Source: an uncultured bacterium (GTDB lineage Bacteria; Patescibacteriota; Minisyncoccia; Phycocordibacterales; Phycocordibacteraceae). Taken from it: a stretch of 64,000 bases of DNA. Shown here piece after piece: positions 9,204 to 61,614 of the stretch. The stretch spans positions 267,766 to 331,765 of the forward strand of contig CALFMK010000001.1 in the NCBI GenBank assembly GCA_937879955.1, read 5' to 3'. The notes under the pieces are model-generated. The model did no database searches. It saw nothing but the letters and a program-made list of their open reading frames with translations, and was not told the DNA's origin. Position 1 is the first letter of the stretch. Each line of letters starts with the position of its first letter. Both the position numbers and the translations under genes were made by a program.

Positions 9204-9521
9204 GGACCGGGCCTGACGACCGCCCTGCCCTTCACGGGACCAGGGAGGAAAGTCCGGACACAGGCGGCAGCGATGCCGCAGAACGGTAGCGGGTAACGCC
9301 CGTCCGCAGCGATGCGCGAGGTGCGAACAGAAACGCTCAATGCCGAAAGGCGAGAGATTCTCTCCGGAGAATGGGCTGGCAGCGATGCCAGACTGAAACG
9401 GCTAAATCCTTACCTCTGTGCAAGGCCGTGCCCAGCAATGGGAGCGCCGCTCGAGGGCATCGGCAACGATGCTCCCAGATAGATGGTCGTCCCCGACAGA
9501 ATCCGGCTTATGACCCGGTCC
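9204..9521 (+). ncRNA. rnpB: RNase P RNA (bacterial type A, compact ~318 nt)
   Basis: P1 pairing GGACCGGGC...GCCCGGUCC; universally conserved P4/CR-I AGGGAGGAAAGUCCGGAC and CR-V ACAGAAUCCGGCUUA; TATTATAAAT -10-like box just upstream; hairpin terminator downstream. Confidence 0.8.
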
Positions 9522-9530
9522 TACATACTG

Positions 9531-21489: not shown

Positions 21490-22299
21490 TTAGAGTGGAA
21501 GTCGATACCTACCTCGCCTCTTCTCAACCAGACCCTCAGAAGCCAACTTTGCGAGCATAGCACTAACCTGCTCGCTCCGATCAGGTCCAAGTATTCCCTC
21601 CAGATACGTTTCGGTCTGCGGACCCTTCGCGAGTGCCTTCAAAATAGCACCCCGCGCCTCTCTCCCAGATCCCGTGAACGCAGCCTGCTTCGCATAGCCC
21701 TTGCTCTTCGCATTCACACGGATACCAGAGCGCTTCAGATGCGCACCATAGTCCATGAGCGCCGAGTACCAGCGCCGTGAATCCCCTTCCGGCAGCGCCT
21801 TCTCCAGTATCGAAAGCACCTCCTTATCATCGACCTTCTCCGCGTTCGGGAAGAAGTGATGGATAACGGCGGTACGCAGGTTCGTCTCCACGAACACGAC
21901 ATCCTTGTTGCCAGCGAACGCCGCTACCGCGCGTGCCGTATAGTGCCCGACGCCAGGCAGGGTCTCGAGCGTCTCTACGGACACAGGCATCTTTCCCTTA
22001 TGCTCACGCACCACGGTCTTCGCCGCCTCGTGCAGCATCTTCGCCCGGCGGTTATATCCGAGCCCCTGCCAATGGAGCAGTACGGACGAGAGTGGCGCCT
22101 CAGCGAGCGCGCTCACGGTTGGGAACGATTCGAGAAAGGCGCGATAGAACGGAATGACCCGCTCCACCTGCGTCTGCTGCAGCATCACTTCGGACACGAG
22201 GATGCGGTACGCATCCTTCGTCTTCCTCCAGGGAAGGTCATGACGCCCCTGCGCCTCGTAGTGCGCGAGGGCGAGGTCCCTAAACCGTTTCGCTGTCAT
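21490..22299 (-). CDS. HhH-GPD superfamily DNA glycosylase (MutY/Nth-like core without Fe-S cysteines) with C-terminal winged-helix-like domain
   Basis: 269 aa; helix-hairpin-helix LPGVGHYTARAV followed by catalytic-Asp region; no Cys-X6-C-X2-C-X5-C cluster. Confidence 0.7.
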   Translation of the reverse strand: MTAKRFRDLALAHYEAQGRHDLPWRKTKDAYRILVSEVMLQQTQVERVIPFYRAFLESFPTVSALAEAPLSSVLLHWQGLGYNRRAKMLHEAAKTVVREHKGKMPVSVETLETLPGVGHYTARAVAAFAGNKDVVFVETNLRTAVIHHFFPNAEKVDDKEVLSILEKALPEGDSRRWYSALMDYGAHLKRSGIRVNAKSKGYAKQAAFTGSGREARGAILKALAKGPQTETYLEGILGPDRSEQVSAMLAKLASEGLVEKRRGRYRLPL

Positions 22300-22528
22300 C
22301 GCCCTTCTCCTCCGTCACAGGCTTCGATGGCTTCACGAGCGGCGCCTCAGGGACGATGAGGATCGCGAGGAAGTATCCGACGAGTCCTGGCACGAAGCCG
22401 GTGAAGACCGTGAGGATGAGGTAGCCGAGGCGGATGAGCACCGGATCGATGCCGAAGAACTCGCCGAGACCTCCCATGATGCCCGCGAATACCCTGTTCG
22501 TCCTGCTGCGCGTGAGTGTCTTTTCCAT
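22280..22528 (-). CDS. PspC domain protein (phage-shock protein C family)
   Basis: 83 aa from MEKTLTRSRTNRVFAGIMGGLGEFFGIDPVLIRLGYLILTVFTG..; TATACT -10 box 7 nt upstream of ATG (leaderless); longer ORF upstream contains an intrinsic terminator, so it was trimmed. Confidence 0.75.
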   Translation of the reverse strand: MEKTLTRSRTNRVFAGIMGGLGEFFGIDPVLIRLGYLILTVFTGFVPGLVGYFLAILIVPEAPLVKPSKPVTEEKGDDSETV

Positions 22529-22573
22529 ATGCATTAGTATACCAAATCGCCCATCTCTGAGGAGGTAAAAGAA

Positions 22574-22600
22574 AAAACGCCTCCGAAGAGACGTTTGTAG
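22574..22600 (-). terminator. intrinsic terminator (minus strand: ACGUCUC-uucg-GAGGCGU + UUUUUUC)
   Basis: 7-bp stem with UUCG tetraloop and U-tract, 45 nt upstream of pspC start and 220 nt downstream of nth stop. Confidence 0.65.
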
Positions 22601-22800
22601 AAAGAAGAAAGAGCAGGGGTCACCCAGTCCCTTGAAGCTCAACCAGGCGGTTAGCGTATACGGCGCCGAGGCGCCAATGCCCGATGGAGAGGCTCCCTTT
22701 AGGCTTCGGGAAAAGCGCTCCAGGAACTCTACACCATCTCCCGGTAGGCGATGCTTGCGGCCGACTGATTCAAGGGACTGGGATCGGATAGATACTACCG
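22575..22800 (-). ncRNA. candidate structured RNA (~200 nt; pspC leader/riboswitch-like element or 3'UTR-derived sRNA of nth), class unknown
   Basis: perfect 14-bp long-range helix CCCAGUCCCUUGAA(22623-22636)/UUCAAGGGACUGGG(22769-22782) enclosing ~130 nt with local hairpins, ending in an intrinsic terminator; region reads through in-frame as nonsense (FFFLQTSLRRRFFF = terminator). Confidence 0.35.
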
Positions 22801-22819
22801 AATTCCGGCCACATGTCAA

Positions 22820-23491
22820 CTATTTCGCCTTCGGCCAGCGCTCAGCCGCCGGCGGCCAGAGCTTCGTGAGCGGATGATCCTCGCACGGATGCGGATTCGC
22901 CTTACAGACGTAGCGCCCGTACAAGACGAGCCCGTTGTTCACGTACTTCCAGTCCTTCTTCGGAACCAGCGCCTCAAGGTCCTTCGATATCTTCGTGAGC
23001 TCGGTATGGTCGGTAAGGTCGAACTTCAGAGCGAAGCGGCGGACGTGCGTATCGGTAGGTATGCCCTCCCATATGTCATGGAGCTCGCCGAGCACGACAT
23101 GCGCGGTCTTGTACGCTACCCCCGGAAGGCGCACGAGCTCCGCCTCCGTCTTCGGGATCCTGCCGCCGAACTCGTCCCTGATCATGCGGGCCGTAGCGAG
23201 GATATGCCGCGCCTTGTTCTTGTAGAAGGTTATGGACGAGATCGCCTCGGTGAATTCGGCGAGATCCGCATCCGCAAAATCCTTCACGGTCTTGTACTTC
23301 TTAAAGAGCGTCGCCGTGACGAGGTTCACGCGCTTGTCGGTGGACTGCGCGGAGAGCATAACTGCCACGACGAGCTGTATCGGAGTCGTGAAAGCGAGCT
23401 CGGTCTTGGGTACCGGATACGCCTTCTTCAGGTACGCGAGGATCTTCTTCGCGCGCGCCTTCCGCTCTTCGGACGTCGAAGGCTTAGGCAT
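22820..23491 (-). CDS. nth: endonuclease III-like HhH-GPD DNA glycosylase
   Basis: 223 aa; HhH motif LPGVAYKTAHVVLGE, catalytic Lys/Asp region; C-terminus has only two Cys (incomplete 4Fe-4S motif). Confidence 0.75.
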   Translation of the reverse strand: MPKPSTSEERKARAKKILAYLKKAYPVPKTELAFTTPIQLVVAVMLSAQSTDKRVNLVTATLFKKYKTVKDFADADLAEFTEAISSITFYKNKARHILATARMIRDEFGGRIPKTEAELVRLPGVAYKTAHVVLGELHDIWEGIPTDTHVRRFALKFDLTDHTELTKISKDLEALVPKKDWKYVNNGLVLYGRYVCKANPHPCEDHPLTKLWPPAAERWPKAK

Positions 23492-23951
23492 GGTCCTTCA
23501 GGTCGAGGAGGACCTGGTCCGCATGGAGCTCGGGCTTCACGTTCTCGTAGACCTTCTTGATGACGCCGTTGCGGTCGATGAGGAACGAGGTGCGCTTGAT
23601 GCCCTGGTACTCCCGGCCCATCATCCTCTTCGTGCCCCAGACGCCATAGCGCTCTGATACCACATGATCCTCGTCCGAAAGCAGCGTGAACGGGAGACCG
23701 TACTTCTCGGCGAACTTCTTATGGCTCTTCACCGAGTCGGCGGATATGCCGAACACAACCGCATCGAGCGCAGATAAGCTCGGCATCGCGTCGCGCAGCA
23801 TGCAGGCCTGCTTCGTGCAGCCTGGCGTATCGTCCTTCGGATAGAAATACAGGAGCACGCGACTTCCGCGGTGCGCTGAGAGCGTATGCGAAACGCCGTC
23901 CTGGTCGAGGAGCGTGAAATCGGGTGCCGTGGTGCCAGCCTCTGGGATCAT
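23484..23951 (-). CDS. bcp: thiol peroxidase Bcp (peroxiredoxin, bacterioferritin comigratory protein family)
   Basis: 155 aa; APDFTL.DQDG, FYPKDDTPGCTKQAC peroxidatic Cys motif. Confidence 0.9.
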   Translation of the reverse strand: MIPEAGTTAPDFTLLDQDGVSHTLSAHRGSRVLLYFYPKDDTPGCTKQACMLRDAMPSLSALDAVVFGISADSVKSHKKFAEKYGLPFTLLSDEDHVVSERYGVWGTKRMMGREYQGIKRTSFLIDRNGVIKKVYENVKPELHADQVLLDLKDHA

Positions 23952-23955
23952 AGTC

Positions 23956-25122
23956 CTATTCCGCCGAGAGCGACTCGTCCTCCGAGAACCTGCCGAACGC
24001 GAAGCGGTTCGCGATGGCGACGATGCTGCCGGTAGCGGCGAGGAAGAGGATGAACGTTATGAGGCCGCCGAGCGCAGGGACGGTGCCGATGAGGTAGAGC
24101 GCGAGCATGCCCAGCAGTGCGATCTTCCAGGTCACGCGCTCGCGCTTGAGGAGCCCGCGCCCGAGCGCCGCGCCCGCGACGATGCCGGCATAGAGATAGC
24201 CGAGCATGAGGAGGAGCGCATAGGCAGCCAGGAGCAGGAACGCGACGCCCATGCCCACGAACGATACGAGCAGTATGAAGATGAGCACCGGCGCGGCGAA
24301 CACCACGGCGAACCCGAGGAGCGCGAGCATCGCGAAGCGGCCCGGAGTCCGCGCGAGGACCTTGTCTGCGACCTGCTGCGAGAAGACCGGGAAGAGGCCC
24401 GCGAGGAGCGCTGCGGCGATGAGCACCGCGAGTATGCGCACCACAAAGAACACGCTCGCGCCGGCGATGGCGAAGGTCTTCGCCTGCTCCACCGTCGGGA
24501 GGTACGAGGACGCGCCCGTGTAGGTCACGCCGCCCACGACGCTCGAGGTAGCCGGCATCGCGACCTCTTGCGGCGCATCGTACTTGAGCGCGCCCGCGAT
24601 GACTGTGCCTTCGGCGAGCGTCAGGCGGTCCGACGCGATAACCTCGACGTCTCCCGCGAAGCTTCCGGAGAGATGCACGTCCGCGCCATAGATGACGGTG
24701 CGTGCGCCGCCGCCAGTCGCGCGGACCGTCCCGCCGATGATGCGCGTATCCTGCGCGCTCGAGGATGCGGTGACGGTACCGCCCGCGATGGTGAGGTCGC
24801 CCTGCACGGGAGCCGTGATGATCACCTGCGCGCCTGCCGCGCGGAGGTCCCCTCCTACGGGACGGTCCACGGCGATGGTGCCGCCCGCGAGCATCGCGTC
24901 GCCTGCCACCGGCGCCGCGAGGTCTATGGTGCCGCCTGCCGCGAGGACGTCGAGCGGAAGCGGTACCGCGACCGTGATGTCGGTCCCGGCCAGATACACG
25001 TTATCGGATGGTGCCTCCGAGATGACGAGCGTGCGGGCGTTCACGAAGGTCGCAGCGGAGGCCGTGGCAGGGAGCGCTGTCGCGAGGAGGGCTATGGCGG
25101 CGAAAAGCTTCGTGCGTGCCAT
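23956..25122 (-). CDS. beta-helical repeat protein (bactofilin/DUF4097-like repeats) with signal peptide and C-terminal multi-TM domain
   Basis: start trimmed to MARTKLFAAIALLATALPATASA (signal peptide) because the longer ORF overlaps msrB; repeated (A)GG.I...AP..GD..LAGGT motif; 4-5 C-terminal TM helices. Confidence 0.55.
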   Translation of the reverse strand: MARTKLFAAIALLATALPATASAATFVNARTLVISEAPSDNVYLAGTDITVAVPLPLDVLAAGGTIDLAAPVAGDAMLAGGTIAVDRPVGGDLRAAGAQVIITAPVQGDLTIAGGTVTASSSAQDTRIIGGTVRATGGGARTVIYGADVHLSGSFAGDVEVIASDRLTLAEGTVIAGALKYDAPQEVAMPATSSVVGGVTYTGASSYLPTVEQAKTFAIAGASVFFVVRILAVLIAAALLAGLFPVFSQQVADKVLARTPGRFAMLALLGFAVVFAAPVLIFILLVSFVGMGVAFLLLAAYALLLMLGYLYAGIVAGAALGRGLLKRERVTWKIALLGMLALYLIGTVPALGGLITFILFLAATGSIVAIANRFAFGRFSEDESLSAE

Positions 25123-25207
25123 GATGCCGCCATAGTAGCACAAGCGTGCCCTGGCACAGAGGCCCTGACGCACGCCCCGGAGATCCATCATTCCGGAGGT
25201 ATGATGG

Positions 25208-25612
25208 ATGCATATGGAACCTATACATAAGACCGAAGAGGAGTGGAGGGAGGCGCTGAGCCCTGAGGAATACCGGGTCCTGCGCGAGGCGGGCACCGAA
25301 GCCGCGTTTGCCGGGAAGTACGTCGACAACCACGAGGACGGCACGTATCGCTGCCGCGCCTGCCACGCCGTGCTCTTCGGATCGGACACGAAGTTCGATT
25401 CCGGCAGCGGCTGGCCGTCCTTCACGGACCCGAAGGTTGCCGAGAACGTCGGGACCCGTCCGGATGACAGCCATGGCATGCACCGCACGGAGGTCTTCTG
25501 CAAGAACTGCGGCAGCCATCTGGGCCACGTCTTCGACGACGGACCGGAGGATGCGGGCGGCAAGCGGTACTGCATCAACTCCATCGCGCTCGATTTCGAG
25601 AAAGAGACCTAG
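25208..25612 (+). CDS. msrB: peptide-methionine (R)-S-oxide reductase MsrB
   Basis: 134 aa; SelR motifs GTY.C..C...LF.S..KFDSG.GWPSF, RTEV.C..CG.HLGHVF.DG. Confidence 0.92.
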   Translation: MHMEPIHKTEEEWREALSPEEYRVLREAGTEAAFAGKYVDNHEDGTYRCRACHAVLFGSDTKFDSGSGWPSFTDPKVAENVGTRPDDSHGMHRTEVFCKNCGSHLGHVFDDGPEDAGGKRYCINSIALDFEKET

Positions 25613-59203: not shown

Positions 59204-60478
59204 ATGAGCAAACTATCTTGGACTACGGTCCAAAAGCGGGTGAACGACCTCGTTCCCCAAGAAGTTAATCCCCGTTCTATTACCGACCATCAGATGGCGG
59301 ATCTTAAGCGAAGTCTTAAGAAGTACAACTTAGTAGAGATTCCAGCCATTGATGCCAATGGCAAAATTCTCGCAGGGCACCAACGTATCAAAGCCCTCCA
59401 GCTTCTTGGTAGAGGCGATGAGCTGATAGACGTGCGCTTCCCTTCTCGAAAGCTCACCAAACTAGAGTCAGAAGAGTATCTCATAGCCTCTAACAAGCTT
59501 GGCGGTGATTGGGACTTTGATCTTCTAAAGTCGTTTGATCTAGGTACTCTGGAATTCGCAGGATTTGACCAGATCGAGATTGCAGAGATATGGGACAAAG
59601 ATAAGGAAGTAAAAGACGACGAGTTCGATATAGAGAAGGAACTCAAGCAAATTAAGAAGCCAAAGACTAAGCTTGGAGACGTAATCACTCTAGGCCACCA
59701 TAGAATCCTCTGCGGAGACTCGACCAAATCCGAGAACCTTAAGCGGCTCCTGGGCAATCAGAAGGCTTCAATGATCTACTCCGACCCTGTCTATAATCTC
59801 GACATCAATTATGACGGTGGGGTTAGCGGGAATAAGGAGTACGGTGGCAAGGTAAACGATTCTCGCTCCTTCGAGGAATATCGAACCTTCCTGAGAGACA
59901 GTATGGAAGCGGCACTAGCCGTGTCCTCGAAAGATACCCATGTCTTCTACTGGTGCGATCAGGTATATATCGGCGTGGTTCAGGAAATTTATCGAGCGCT
60001 CGGCATAGCTAATAAACGAGTGTGTCTCTGGCTCAAGAACAACCACAACCCAGTCCCTAGTGTGGCGTTCAACAAGGTATACGAGCCAGTAGTGTACGGA
60101 GTTCGTGGAAAGCCTTATTTAGCTGACACCATGCAGAATCTGAATGAGGTCATGAACAAGGAGATGAGCTCAGGGAATGACCTACTTGATGAAGTAGATG
60201 TCTGGACTGCAAAGCGTCTTTCAGCGAAAGACTATGAGCACGCCACCTCTAAGCCGCCTCAGCTCCACGAGCGAGCCATTAAGCGCTGCACGAAGCCAGG
60301 AGACATCATCCTTGATAGCTTCCTTGGATCAGGCAGTACGCTTATAGCCGGAGAGTCACTCGGTCGCAAGGTTTACGGCTGCGAGCTTGAACCGCAGTTC
60401 TGTGATCTTATCGTACGTAGGTACGAGAAGATGACAGGTAAGAAAGCAGTGTATGAAAAAGACCAAAGCACTGCTTGA
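59204..60478 (+). CDS. ParB-like nuclease domain / DNA methyltransferase (N6-adenine/N4-cytosine, beta class) fusion protein
   Basis: N-terminal ParB/Srx motif (IPAIDANGKILAGHQRIKALQ), catalytic (D/S)PP(Y/F)-type motif SDPVYN, C-terminal AdoMet motif FLGSGST. Confidence 0.85.
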   Translation: MSKLSWTTVQKRVNDLVPQEVNPRSITDHQMADLKRSLKKYNLVEIPAIDANGKILAGHQRIKALQLLGRGDELIDVRFPSRKLTKLESEEYLIASNKLGGDWDFDLLKSFDLGTLEFAGFDQIEIAEIWDKDKEVKDDEFDIEKELKQIKKPKTKLGDVITLGHHRILCGDSTKSENLKRLLGNQKASMIYSDPVYNLDINYDGGVSGNKEYGGKVNDSRSFEEYRTFLRDSMEAALAVSSKDTHVFYWCDQVYIGVVQEIYRALGIANKRVCLWLKNNHNPVPSVAFNKVYEPVVYGVRGKPYLADTMQNLNEVMNKEMSSGNDLLDEVDVWTAKRLSAKDYEHATSKPPQLHERAIKRCTKPGDIILDSFLGSGSTLIAGESLGRKVYGCELEPQFCDLIVRRYEKMTGKKAVYEKDQSTA

Positions 60479-61037
60479 TAGGCTTGTAGAAGAACTCGAG
60501 AAAACTCCACTGATCCAAATTGCTTGCGACAAAGTCGGTATTTCCAGAAACACCTTCTATCGCTGGATGAAGGAGGACGAGGACTTTCTCGCTCGTGTTA
60601 ATGAAGCCGTATCACTAGGTACGGGTCTTGTTAGTGACGTGGCCATAAGCAACGTACTGGAAGGCATCAAGAAGAAAGATGCCATGTATACGAAGTACTG
60701 GCTAAGCCACAAACATCCTGACTTCCGGCGACCATATGTTCATAGGATCGATGCAGATGATCTCCTTCTACACTCTCGCCTTCTTGCTGAAGGAGCTCAG
60801 AAACATAAGGTTGAGCAACAGATAGCGAATTCACGCGGGTACATCGATGAAGAGATGTCACGGAGACAGGAAGCAGAAGTCGATGACTTTATGGAGAAGT
60901 GGGATCACATCGTAGCCAAGGGAGACGAAGAACGCGCCAAAGTCTTATTCGAGAAGTGGAAGAAGGAATACGAGACTCAAGTGCCAGACACTCCTCCACC
61001 CGACAATAAGAAGCCTCGTAAGAAGAACTGGCGATAA
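60453..61037 (+). CDS. HTH-domain protein, possible phage terminase small subunit (TerS-like)
   Basis: N-terminal HTH (IACDKVGISRNTFYRWMKEDEDF), charged C-terminus; sits downstream of ParB-MTase as in phage packaging modules. Confidence 0.45.
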   Translation: MKKTKALLDRLVEELEKTPLIQIACDKVGISRNTFYRWMKEDEDFLARVNEAVSLGTGLVSDVAISNVLEGIKKKDAMYTKYWLSHKHPDFRRPYVHRIDADDLLLHSRLLAEGAQKHKVEQQIANSRGYIDEEMSRRQEAEVDDFMEKWDHIVAKGDEERAKVLFEKWKKEYETQVPDTPPPDNKKPRKKNWR

Positions 61038-61280
61038 TTATTCTTTCACTTGATCTGCAAGAAGCTTCTTCCCTACTGGAGAATCAACCGGGATCATATT
61101 TGTTGATCCGCAAACTGGGCATGCCTTATGTCGAGAAGTTGATCTCCAAATGGAATAGATGATTCCTGGAATAATGAAGCAGAGGAATAGAACTATCTCT
61201 ATCAACATACTTCCCTTAATTGCCGTACGAGGATTACCTACGTGTCCGCACGATGCACAAATCATTTCTTGCTTAGCCAT
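61038..61280 (-). CDS. zinc-ribbon membrane protein (hypothetical)
   Basis: 80 aa; CxxC...TM...CPVC arrangement. Confidence 0.45.
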   Translation of the reverse strand: MAKQEMICASCGHVGNPRTAIKGSMLIEIVLFLCFIIPGIIYSIWRSTSRHKACPVCGSTNMIPVDSPVGKKLLADQVKE

Positions 61281-61283
61281 TTT

Positions 61284-61430
61284 GTTGTTGGTTCGGTTTT
61301 GTAATTCCCGATGGCCAGATACACAAAAATCCCGCCACCAGGAGGACCCTTACGGGTATCCCTACCTAAGTTTCCCTAGGTAACCGAACCAACGACCCTG
61401 ATGACGGGGTTTTTACGTTGGTTCGGATTT
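61284..61430. repeat. iteron-like short repeats (GTTGGTTCGG x2 direct at 61287 and 61417; inverted copy at 61384) in a 334-bp intergenic region
   Basis: read directly; lies between divergent genes upstream of the integrase module. Confidence 0.35.
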
Positions 61431-61614
61431 TCGGCCATATCCTTTGGAAACCAAAGGGGTTAGGCCATTTTTATTCAATTGTAGACAGGTTCCCCTGCCA
61501 TCTTCTGATGGTATCGCAGTTCTTAGAGTTTGCTAAGCCTGTCCACGACCATGCGACGAATCCATAGTTCTGCATAGACTATGCACCGGCCACCAGTCTG
61601 GCATCAATTAATAG

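Follow-up and report, generated by a model that had tools for sequence, protein, structure and literature searches.

A candidate structured small-RNA gene in the 3' flank of nth in a Patescibacteria genome, and its exchangeable relatives

Introduction

The minus strand of the 64-kb window (the whole stretch of DNA analysed here, 64,000 nt from an uncultured patescibacterium) carries a strongly structured stretch between nth and pspC, and it raises the question of whether this stretch is a leader that controls pspC or a gene in its own right. The preliminary description of the locus left two readings side by side, a riboswitch or attenuator leader of pspC and an independent or 3'UTR-derived sRNA. 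The noncoding RNAs of candidate-phyla-radiation (CPR) bacteria are, to our knowledge, almost unexplored. The locus was compared with a collection of about 170 nth loci (L001-L165 and L201-L214), obtained by Nth-anchored searches, which gave 80 loci from genomes and 80 from metagenomes (all of them in MAGs of Paceibacterota, Kaiserbacteria or Patescibacteria), and complemented with closer relatives from exact-protein look-ups.

Locus organisation and predicted parts of the gene

In the window, nth belongs to a compact oxidative-damage / base-excision repair cluster (21490-25600, minus strand), whose other members are bcp (a peroxiredoxin), pspC and a MutY-like gene with an HhH-GPD domain; in relatives, msrB and the gene of a DUF8173 protein are additionally found upstream. 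A promoter scan over 1.6 kb returned a single promoter-like site (1 found versus 0.4 expected), which is near-consensus (10/12) and was absent from the feature list of the preliminary description, and the closing helix P1 starts nine bases past its -10 hexamer (Table 1). Among inverted repeats of the 64-kb window whose arms are separated by more than 5 nt, P1 alone is perfect over at least 14 bp; the chance expectation is about 0.07 per window (64000 x 300 / 4^14). Within the 5' joining strand J5, the motif CAAGC is invariant in the window and in the homologues L086 and L109. Judged from a promoter and a terminator that are both predicted by consensus, the RNA is a promoter-to-terminator unit. 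No terminator is present in the sequence between nth and the RNA, so read-through from nth would cover the element too and add transcripts, and part or even all of the RNA could arise in this way.

Every sequence feature of the preliminary description was found where it had been placed: the 14-bp helix, the inner GC hairpin (P7 in Table 1), the intrinsic terminator with its UUCG loop and U-run (nine pairs were counted) and the leaderless pspC about 45 nt past the terminator. The leaderless look of pspC (TTTGnTATACT-N7-ATG, window 22526-22546, minus strand) is also seen in the HAD hydrolase genes of relatives (GGTACCATnnGGnnATG); the -10 element stands 6-7 nt from the ATG, and the pattern recurs across these genomes.

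Table 1. Predicted features from nth to pspC, with positions in the window; paired strands are listed in the 5' to 3' order of the RNA.
Feature	Position	Strand	Basis or remark
nth, endonuclease III, HhH-GPD domain	22820-23491	minus	ORF and domain match
Sigma-70-type promoter	22819-22792	minus	consensus scan, 10/12 match
Promoter -35, TTGACA	22819-22814	minus	one base past nth stop codon
Promoter -10, TAGTAT, after a spacer of 16 nt	22797-22792	minus	consensus scan
Predicted transcription start	~22786-22783	minus	from promoter position
P1, 5' strand CCCAGUCCCUUGAA	22782-22769	minus	inverted repeat, fold, homologue comparison
P1b/c, inward extension of P1	22768-22760 paired with 22648-22639	minus	fold
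J5, 5' joining strand CGCAAGCAUC, predicted mostly unpaired	22750-22759	minus	fold and alignment
P3, 5' strand GCCU	22749-22746	minus	conserved core, 5' side
Asymmetric 7-nt loop ACCGGGA	22745-22739	minus	conserved core, 5' side
P4, 5' strand GAUGG	22738-22734	minus	conserved core, 5' side
Distal arm, 46 nt, opening with UGUAG	22688-22733	minus	fold and comparison
P5, UUCCU/AGGGA	22726-22722 with 22698-22694	minus	in distal arm
P6 hairpin, GCUUU-UCCC-GAAGC	22716-22703	minus	in distal arm
P4, 3' strand CCAUC	22687-22683	minus	conserved core, 3' side
P3, 3' strand GGGC	22682-22679	minus	conserved core, 3' side
P7 hairpin, GGCGC-CUCG-GCGCC	22675-22662	minus	comparison in five sequences
GUAUAC and 3' joining strand J3b	22661-22637	minus	3' of P7
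P1, 3' strand UUCAAGGGACUGGG	22636-22623	minus	perfect complement of CCCAGUCCCUUGAA
Pyrimidine-rich tail, single-stranded	22622-22597	minus	comparison of tails
Tail core CUGCUCUUUCUUCUUUCU, carrying YUCUUUC	22616-22599	minus	tail comparison
Intrinsic terminator stem AAACGUCUC / GAGGCGUUU, 9 pairs, UUCG loop	22596-22575	minus	terminator scan
Whole terminator, including U-run	22567-22596	minus	terminator scan
pspC extended -10, TGgTATACT	22544-22536 (-10 hexamer 22541-22536)	minus	sequence; conserved in relatives
pspC, leaderless ATG and PspC-domain ORF	ATG 22528, ORF to 22280	minus	ATG 7 nt 3' of TGgTATACT

Coding potential, fold and covariation

The stretch past the nth stop codon had been described as noncoding, and this is borne out by frame-breaking differences: homologues are separated by indels of 1, 2, 1 and 13 nt, which are not multiples of three, so a coding reading is excluded and nothing is translated. 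In the relatives L004, L081, L163 and L201, pspC starts at MEKK right after nth. A 179-aa ORF that runs through the element (22280-22819) was considered and rejected as mechanical; it was not found in relatives.

The RNA (22570-22790, minus strand, 221 nt) folds to -86.5 kcal/mol with z = -2.85 (1 of 200 shuffles was as good), and the core alone reaches a folding z of -4.7. Over 26 versions the mean folding z is -3.2, a value biased downward by the choice of bodies that contain a helix. The helices were assigned explicitly in the window, L086, L109, L211 and L212, and these five sequences have one common order, which begins with P1, a joining strand of 19-29 nt, P3 (GCCU / RGGC), an asymmetric loop with the consensus A(C/A)(C/A)(G/U)GGGA and P4, continues, usually through UGUAG, into a distal domain of 44-99 nt, and returns through the 3' strands of P4 and P3, 2-5 nt, the P7 hairpin, a joining strand of 23-38 nt and the 3' strand of P1 to a CU-rich tail. 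At each of the five positions of P4 at least two pair types occur (GAUGG/CCAUC, GACGU/GUGUC, GUGCG/UGCAC, UGCGG/CCGCA and UGUGG/CCACA), i.e., P4 covaries at 5/5 positions. P7 forms a tetraloop hairpin throughout, with a stem that differs in each of the five (GGCGC/GCGCC in the window, and CGCC/GGCG, CUAU/AUAG, GCCGC/GCGGC and GCGCGC/GCGCGC), and P1 is retained in the other four, where a compensatory change turns A-U into G-C and G-U wobbles occur. Taken over the four named helices and the five sequences, 124 cells are Watson-Crick, 9 are G-U and 1 is mismatched. With covariation on the window's fold read from three close and two remote sequences, P1, P4 and P7 appear to be kept paired by compensatory change in the five sequences, which is the covariation that the preliminary description had proposed to look for.

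The distal arm of the window is swapped for domains of 99 nt (L211) and 89 nt (L212), and the counterpart of P6 in L038/L124 (GCCUU-CCCC-GAGGC) differs by a compensatory change. When the window sequence is constrained to the comparative model, the fold lies 1.1 kcal/mol above the minimum free energy; the G-U pairs and the lower energies of the sense strand agree with the strand that reads in the sense of nth. An alternative local hairpin (CAUC [GCCUACCGGGA] GAUG) was rejected, as it is not kept throughout the five sequences, whereas P3/P4 is.

Homologues and the wider family

Two clear homologues were recovered by nhmmer, L086 (E 6e-26; order nth-RNA-pspC) and L109 (E 1e-13; order nth-RNA-MutY-like gene), and two further ones, L211 and L212, are remote. 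The window RNA matched none of the first 80 genome loci by nhmmer or blastn, and a profile from three sequences added no members. The window, L086 and L109 were combined into a covariance model, which scores them at 185, 164 and 128 bits. It places L212 correctly (15.8 bits, E 0.05, in the noise range once filters are off) and matches the P5-P6 part of L038/L124 (a weak score, within noise with filters off). With filters off, the model produces many spurious long-hairpin matches, and the scores of L211, L212 and L214 fall into that noise, so these weak matches cannot stand alone. Across the approximately 170 nth loci, the covariance-model search finds the RNA only after nth.

A wider set of 30 related versions has its ends in common. 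In these, a -35 element (TTGAC/TTGCA) lies within +1 to +18 of the nth stop (exactly at +1 in 19 of the 30), followed by a spacer of 16-17 nt, a -10 element TAnnnT and a closing helix that begins 5-9 nt past the -10. In the family the closing helix often reads GGUCCYGGUUCC / GGAACCRGGACC, the structured interiors span 60-255 nt, and a terminator follows in most versions. In a strict automatic test, a promoter together with nine consecutive long-range pairs was found at 16 of 171 nth stops versus 3 of 1000 control positions, so that the combined signature is about 30-fold enriched. The motif YUCUUUC occurs a few bases 3' of P1 in many versions that are otherwise unalignable.

A second clade (L001, L005, L210 and L161) is internally alignable, with eight pairs showing compensatory change; it folds into a multi-branched structure (a multi-hairpin loop), and only P1 is common to it and the window's clade. 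The shortest version has about 80 nt (L011 4697-4783 and L098 3697-3785) and contains CCGUAGAGG...CCUGACCCCAU...CAGGAAG. This stretch presumably resembles the part of 5S rRNA around helix II-III and loop C, with CCUGACCCCAU...CAGGAAG being similar to loop C; a 5S identity for this version was dropped, as the Rfam 5S model gave no match (E<=10, L011).

As far as the loci compared here reach, the family appears restricted so far to CPR genomes of the Paceibacteria/Kaiserbacteria type, and we judge the RNA to belong to a previously unclassified, lineage-specific family of structured sRNAs of CPR bacteria.

Replacement between close relatives

The closest comparison is with L161, whose Nth is 97% identical to that of the window. 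Through the final base of the nth stop codon the two sequences are collinear (94.9% identity), window 22818-22617 and L161 2674-2923 have no similarity, and from 22616 onward similarity resumes at 89.9% identity. The swapped segment takes in the promoter and the RNA body with P1, whereas the tail motif is retained, and the L161 version falls in the second clade. Among locus pairs with Nth at least 80% identical, 3 of 43 have similarity in the RNA body, while the window and L086 (Nth 76% identical) are 71% identical in the RNA; the type of RNA is therefore incongruent with the tree of the flanking gene. The RNA is absent from some close relatives and is thus dispensable at this locus. The similarity to L161 ends with the MutY-like gene (window 21505), which makes the neighbourhood a mosaic.

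The gap behind nth is a variable hot spot that is occupied by an RNA, is empty or holds an opposite-strand ORF. Such an ORF (about 166 aa, with its own terminator) replaces the RNA after nth in L162 (2093-2593, minus strand) and also in L003, L083 and L094; the ORFs behind nth in L162 and L164 matched no Pfam or PADLOC family.

Exchange of this kind might suggest selfish or neutral DNA, be it a miniature inverted-repeat element, a cassette moved by recombination or DNA in decay, with the hairpins as by-products. The closing helix, semi-conserved in sequence, does resemble terminal inverted repeats, and the locus is a hot spot of presence, absence and replacement that can also hold an opposite-strand ORF (L162, L003). 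However, the RNA is single copy, none further being found in the 64-kb window or elsewhere in the approximately 170 nth loci (L001-L165, L201-L214); the promoter, although outside the inverted repeats, is part of the swapped segment; and the internal helices are kept paired by compensatory changes, with G-U pairs that are strand-specific. No relatives were found in phages or viral contigs either (blastn against phage genomes gave nothing meaningful, and two pattern scans of viral collections gave chance matches only). Another GGTCCnG...CnGGACC pair in non-coding DNA was not found, nor was a diverged repeat of the RNA body in the window, as the idea of a DGR template would have it. We regard a selfish or neutral origin of the element as very unlikely.

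Another explanation of the exchange starts from the constant parts. The versions could be idiomorph-like, with promoter position, closing helix, CU tail and terminator kept constant and several deeply diverged interiors shuffled by recombination under diversifying or frequency-dependent selection, e.g., as a decoy or sensor in a conflict with phages or, since these bacteria are episymbionts, with their host cell. We consider this a speculative and rather unlikely account; if true, the versions would correspond, at the level of RNA, to variable loci of defence or recognition.

Relation to pspC

The order nth-RNA-pspC is kept in the window, L086, L161 and several others, and a domain closed by P1 precedes a terminator that stands about 45 nt before pspC, an arrangement that a riboswitch or attenuator would have if a ligand or stress controlled read-through of the terminator into pspC. 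Against this, the RNA comes with its own promoter and ends in a strong terminator, beyond which pspC starts leaderless from a conserved extended -10 of its own; relatives keep this pspC promoter and the MEKK start whether or not they have the RNA. In L004, L081, L163 and L201, nth is followed by the pspC promoter and MEKK within 26-50 nt, with no RNA between them. The gene downstream of the RNA varies (pspC, a HAD hydrolase with Pfam on record, or the MutY-like gene), so that the same type of RNA precedes HAD or MutY-like genes elsewhere. Furthermore, its interior is exchanged or unalignable between near relatives (Nth 97% identical), which is not the conservation expected of an aptamer, and Rfam returned no riboswitch family.

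A promoter between element and ORF, no association with one gene and no conserved ligand core mean that three defining features of a riboswitch fail. The leader reading of the preliminary description is largely refuted, and in our estimate it is extremely improbable that pspC is controlled in this way; for this window, a false lead is removed. Because the downstream genes differ and nth-pspC occurs without the RNA, the element is better described as a separate RNA gene at the 3' end of nth than as a pspC leader. The other reading of the preliminary description, an independent or 3'UTR-derived sRNA, is upheld by the promoter position in 30 versions, the terminators, the covarying helices and the indels.

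Proposed function

Two accounts of such an RNA remain to be weighed. In the first, the element is a passive 3'UTR of the bcp-nth mRNA, whose structured end terminates and stabilises the transcript but has no separate function, and the promoter match is fortuitous. The terminator-free junction does imply that nth transcripts must cross the element and end at its terminator. But 30 versions that otherwise cannot be aligned have a -35/-10 pair at a constant spacing to the stop codon and to P1, the promoter-helix signature is about 30-fold enriched over control positions, and a 3' end needs the terminator alone, so that conserved internal loops and covarying helices would be superfluous. A passive 3'UTR seems fairly unlikely to us.

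In the second account, which we prefer and to which we assign a probability of roughly 0.6, the 3' flank of nth holds a separate gene for a structured small RNA that acts in trans, with no cis control of pspC. Gene structure, fold and family come from the data, whereas the mode of action and the partner are what we infer. The promoter a few bases upstream of the closing helix would fire, and with the intrinsic terminator as its end the primary transcript would measure about 210-220 nt. Its core of about 160 nt is predicted to fold with the long closing stem P1 around an internal multiloop, from which project the small tetraloop hairpin P7 and an irregular arm made up of P3, the conserved asymmetric ACCGGGA loop, P4 and a distal domain that can be replaced; a single-stranded CU-rich tail lies between P1 and the terminator. 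In the family, promoter position, closing-helix sequence, often YUCUUUC, and the terminator are the constants, while the interiors differ between deeply diverged versions that have passed from one close relative to another. The stable structured RNA would then act in trans, its closing helix, the GGGA loop (in the window's clade) and the CU tail binding protein or RNA.

Our best guess is thus a trans-acting structured sRNA that binds protein or RNA. Searches for antisense targets gave only chance-level 11-13-mers, and a complement of the tail (at least 15 of 18 bases) was found in the 64-kb window only at the locus itself. CPR bacteria have tiny genomes with little spare DNA, and because a strongly promoted RNA is kept at a fixed position in many Paceibacteria, it probably has a useful role. 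If the family is confirmed, it would be a new RNA class to annotate in CPR genomes and a concrete case for the replacement of a structured RNA gene by recombination; the closing helix, the GGGA loop and the CU tail offer a handle for finding the partner.

Comparison with known RNAs and systems

The preliminary description had found no resemblance to 6S, SRP, tmRNA or common riboswitches, and Rfam and ARAGORN agree with it. The Rfam scan that it had suggested matched no known family: at gathering score, no family was found at the RNA in a search of the whole 64-kb window; at E<=10, the 451 nt of the region gave only 14 bits for PhotoRC-I on the terminator hairpin; and neither a gathering search of 17 loci nor a search at E<=10 of 13 loci with other versions gave anything relevant. 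ARAGORN found no tmRNA, and the covariance models of SRP RNA, RNase P RNA and 5S rRNA had no match at the element. A literature search found no description of this RNA, nor of 6S RNA in Patescibacteria.

Elsewhere in the window, Rfam 15 identified RNase P RNA, LOOT RNA and four tRNAs. The RNase P RNA (bacterial type A, 9204-9525, plus strand, 118 bits) has 322 nt versus a model of 367 positions and is thus a reduced version. The LOOT RNA (RF03000, 81 bits, 61278-61466, minus strand) lies directly upstream of the gene of an 80-aa Pmp3/LITAF-like membrane protein (61038-61280). The bases 5' of the ATG of this gene (AAACCGAACCAAC...) repeat a segment internal to LOOT and complement the LOOT-internal GUUGGUUCGGU (inverted repeat 61284-61298 / 61382-61396), which suggests a pairing of LOOT in cis with the translation start. 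The neighbouring genes (59204-61037, plus strand) encode an N6/N4 DNA methylase (424 aa) and then a protein of 194 aa that weakly matches a terminase small subunit and a transposase HTH; the two may be a mobile-element or prophage remnant beside LOOT.

In the window's clade the outline resembles that of 6S RNA (RF00013 and related) in size, closing stem, large internal loop, irregular terminal arm and 3'-side hairpin. A 6S-like RNA, i.e., a rod with a central bubble that sequesters the RNA polymerase holoenzyme, would fit the closing stem, the 5' unpaired strand of 10-29 nt, the irregular terminal arm, the 3' unpaired strand with a small hairpin and the size of about 160 nt. The closing stem CAGUCCCUUGAA / UUCAAGGGAC resembles what we take to be that of E. 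coli 6S (CAGUCCCCUGAG / UUCAAGGGUUAC), a similarity of use as a lead only. However, the Rfam 6S model and other 6S-type families gave nothing even at E<=10 (on the 451 nt and on the 13 loci with other versions), the sister clade (L001, L005, L210, L161) is a multi-branched, multi-hairpin loop and not a rod, and a gene that is missing in close relatives and swapped between near-identical flanks, i.e., dispensable and replaceable here, would be unusual for a housekeeping 6S RNA. Judged by shape alone, the window's clade could have a 6S-like role; we think it quite unlikely.

Type I 3'UTR-embedded sRNAs of enterobacteria, e.g., DapZ and MicL, are short RNAs with little structure that depend on Hfq and pair with their targets through a conserved seed. 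The RNA described here is like them in having a promoter at the end of the upstream gene, a shared terminator, the same orientation and functional independence from the downstream gene; unlike them, it is closed by a long helix around a core of several covarying helices, and its only conserved single strand is the CU-rich stretch before the terminator. Y RNAs (Ro/Rsr-associated) also combine a terminal stem of the 5' and 3' ends as their most conserved part, a highly variable interior and a pyrimidine-rich single strand, although their pyrimidine tract lies in an internal loop and that of the present RNA outside the stem. The Rfam models Y_RNA and YrlA had no match, and none of the five neighbours (bcp, nth, pspC, MutY-like and a 243-aa protein) has a Ro/TROVE domain. 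With the orphan structured RNAs of bacteria that came from comparative genomics, e.g., LOOT, raiA and ROOL, the RNA has in common that it is lineage-restricted, covarying and flanked by promoter and terminator; it differs in that the covariance-model search gives no membership and its interior is unusually heterogeneous.

The exchange at the locus also has a parallel. Switched intergenic regions are sets of two or more unalignable sequences that take the same place in close relatives, between flanking genes that stay the same (PMC5890482), as is the case for the window and L161, which cannot be aligned between flanks that are 95% and 90% identical. The published regions are alternative regulatory regions for the downstream gene (PMC5890482), whereas here both alternatives are predicted to be structured RNAs, each running from promoter to terminator and with the same end architecture.
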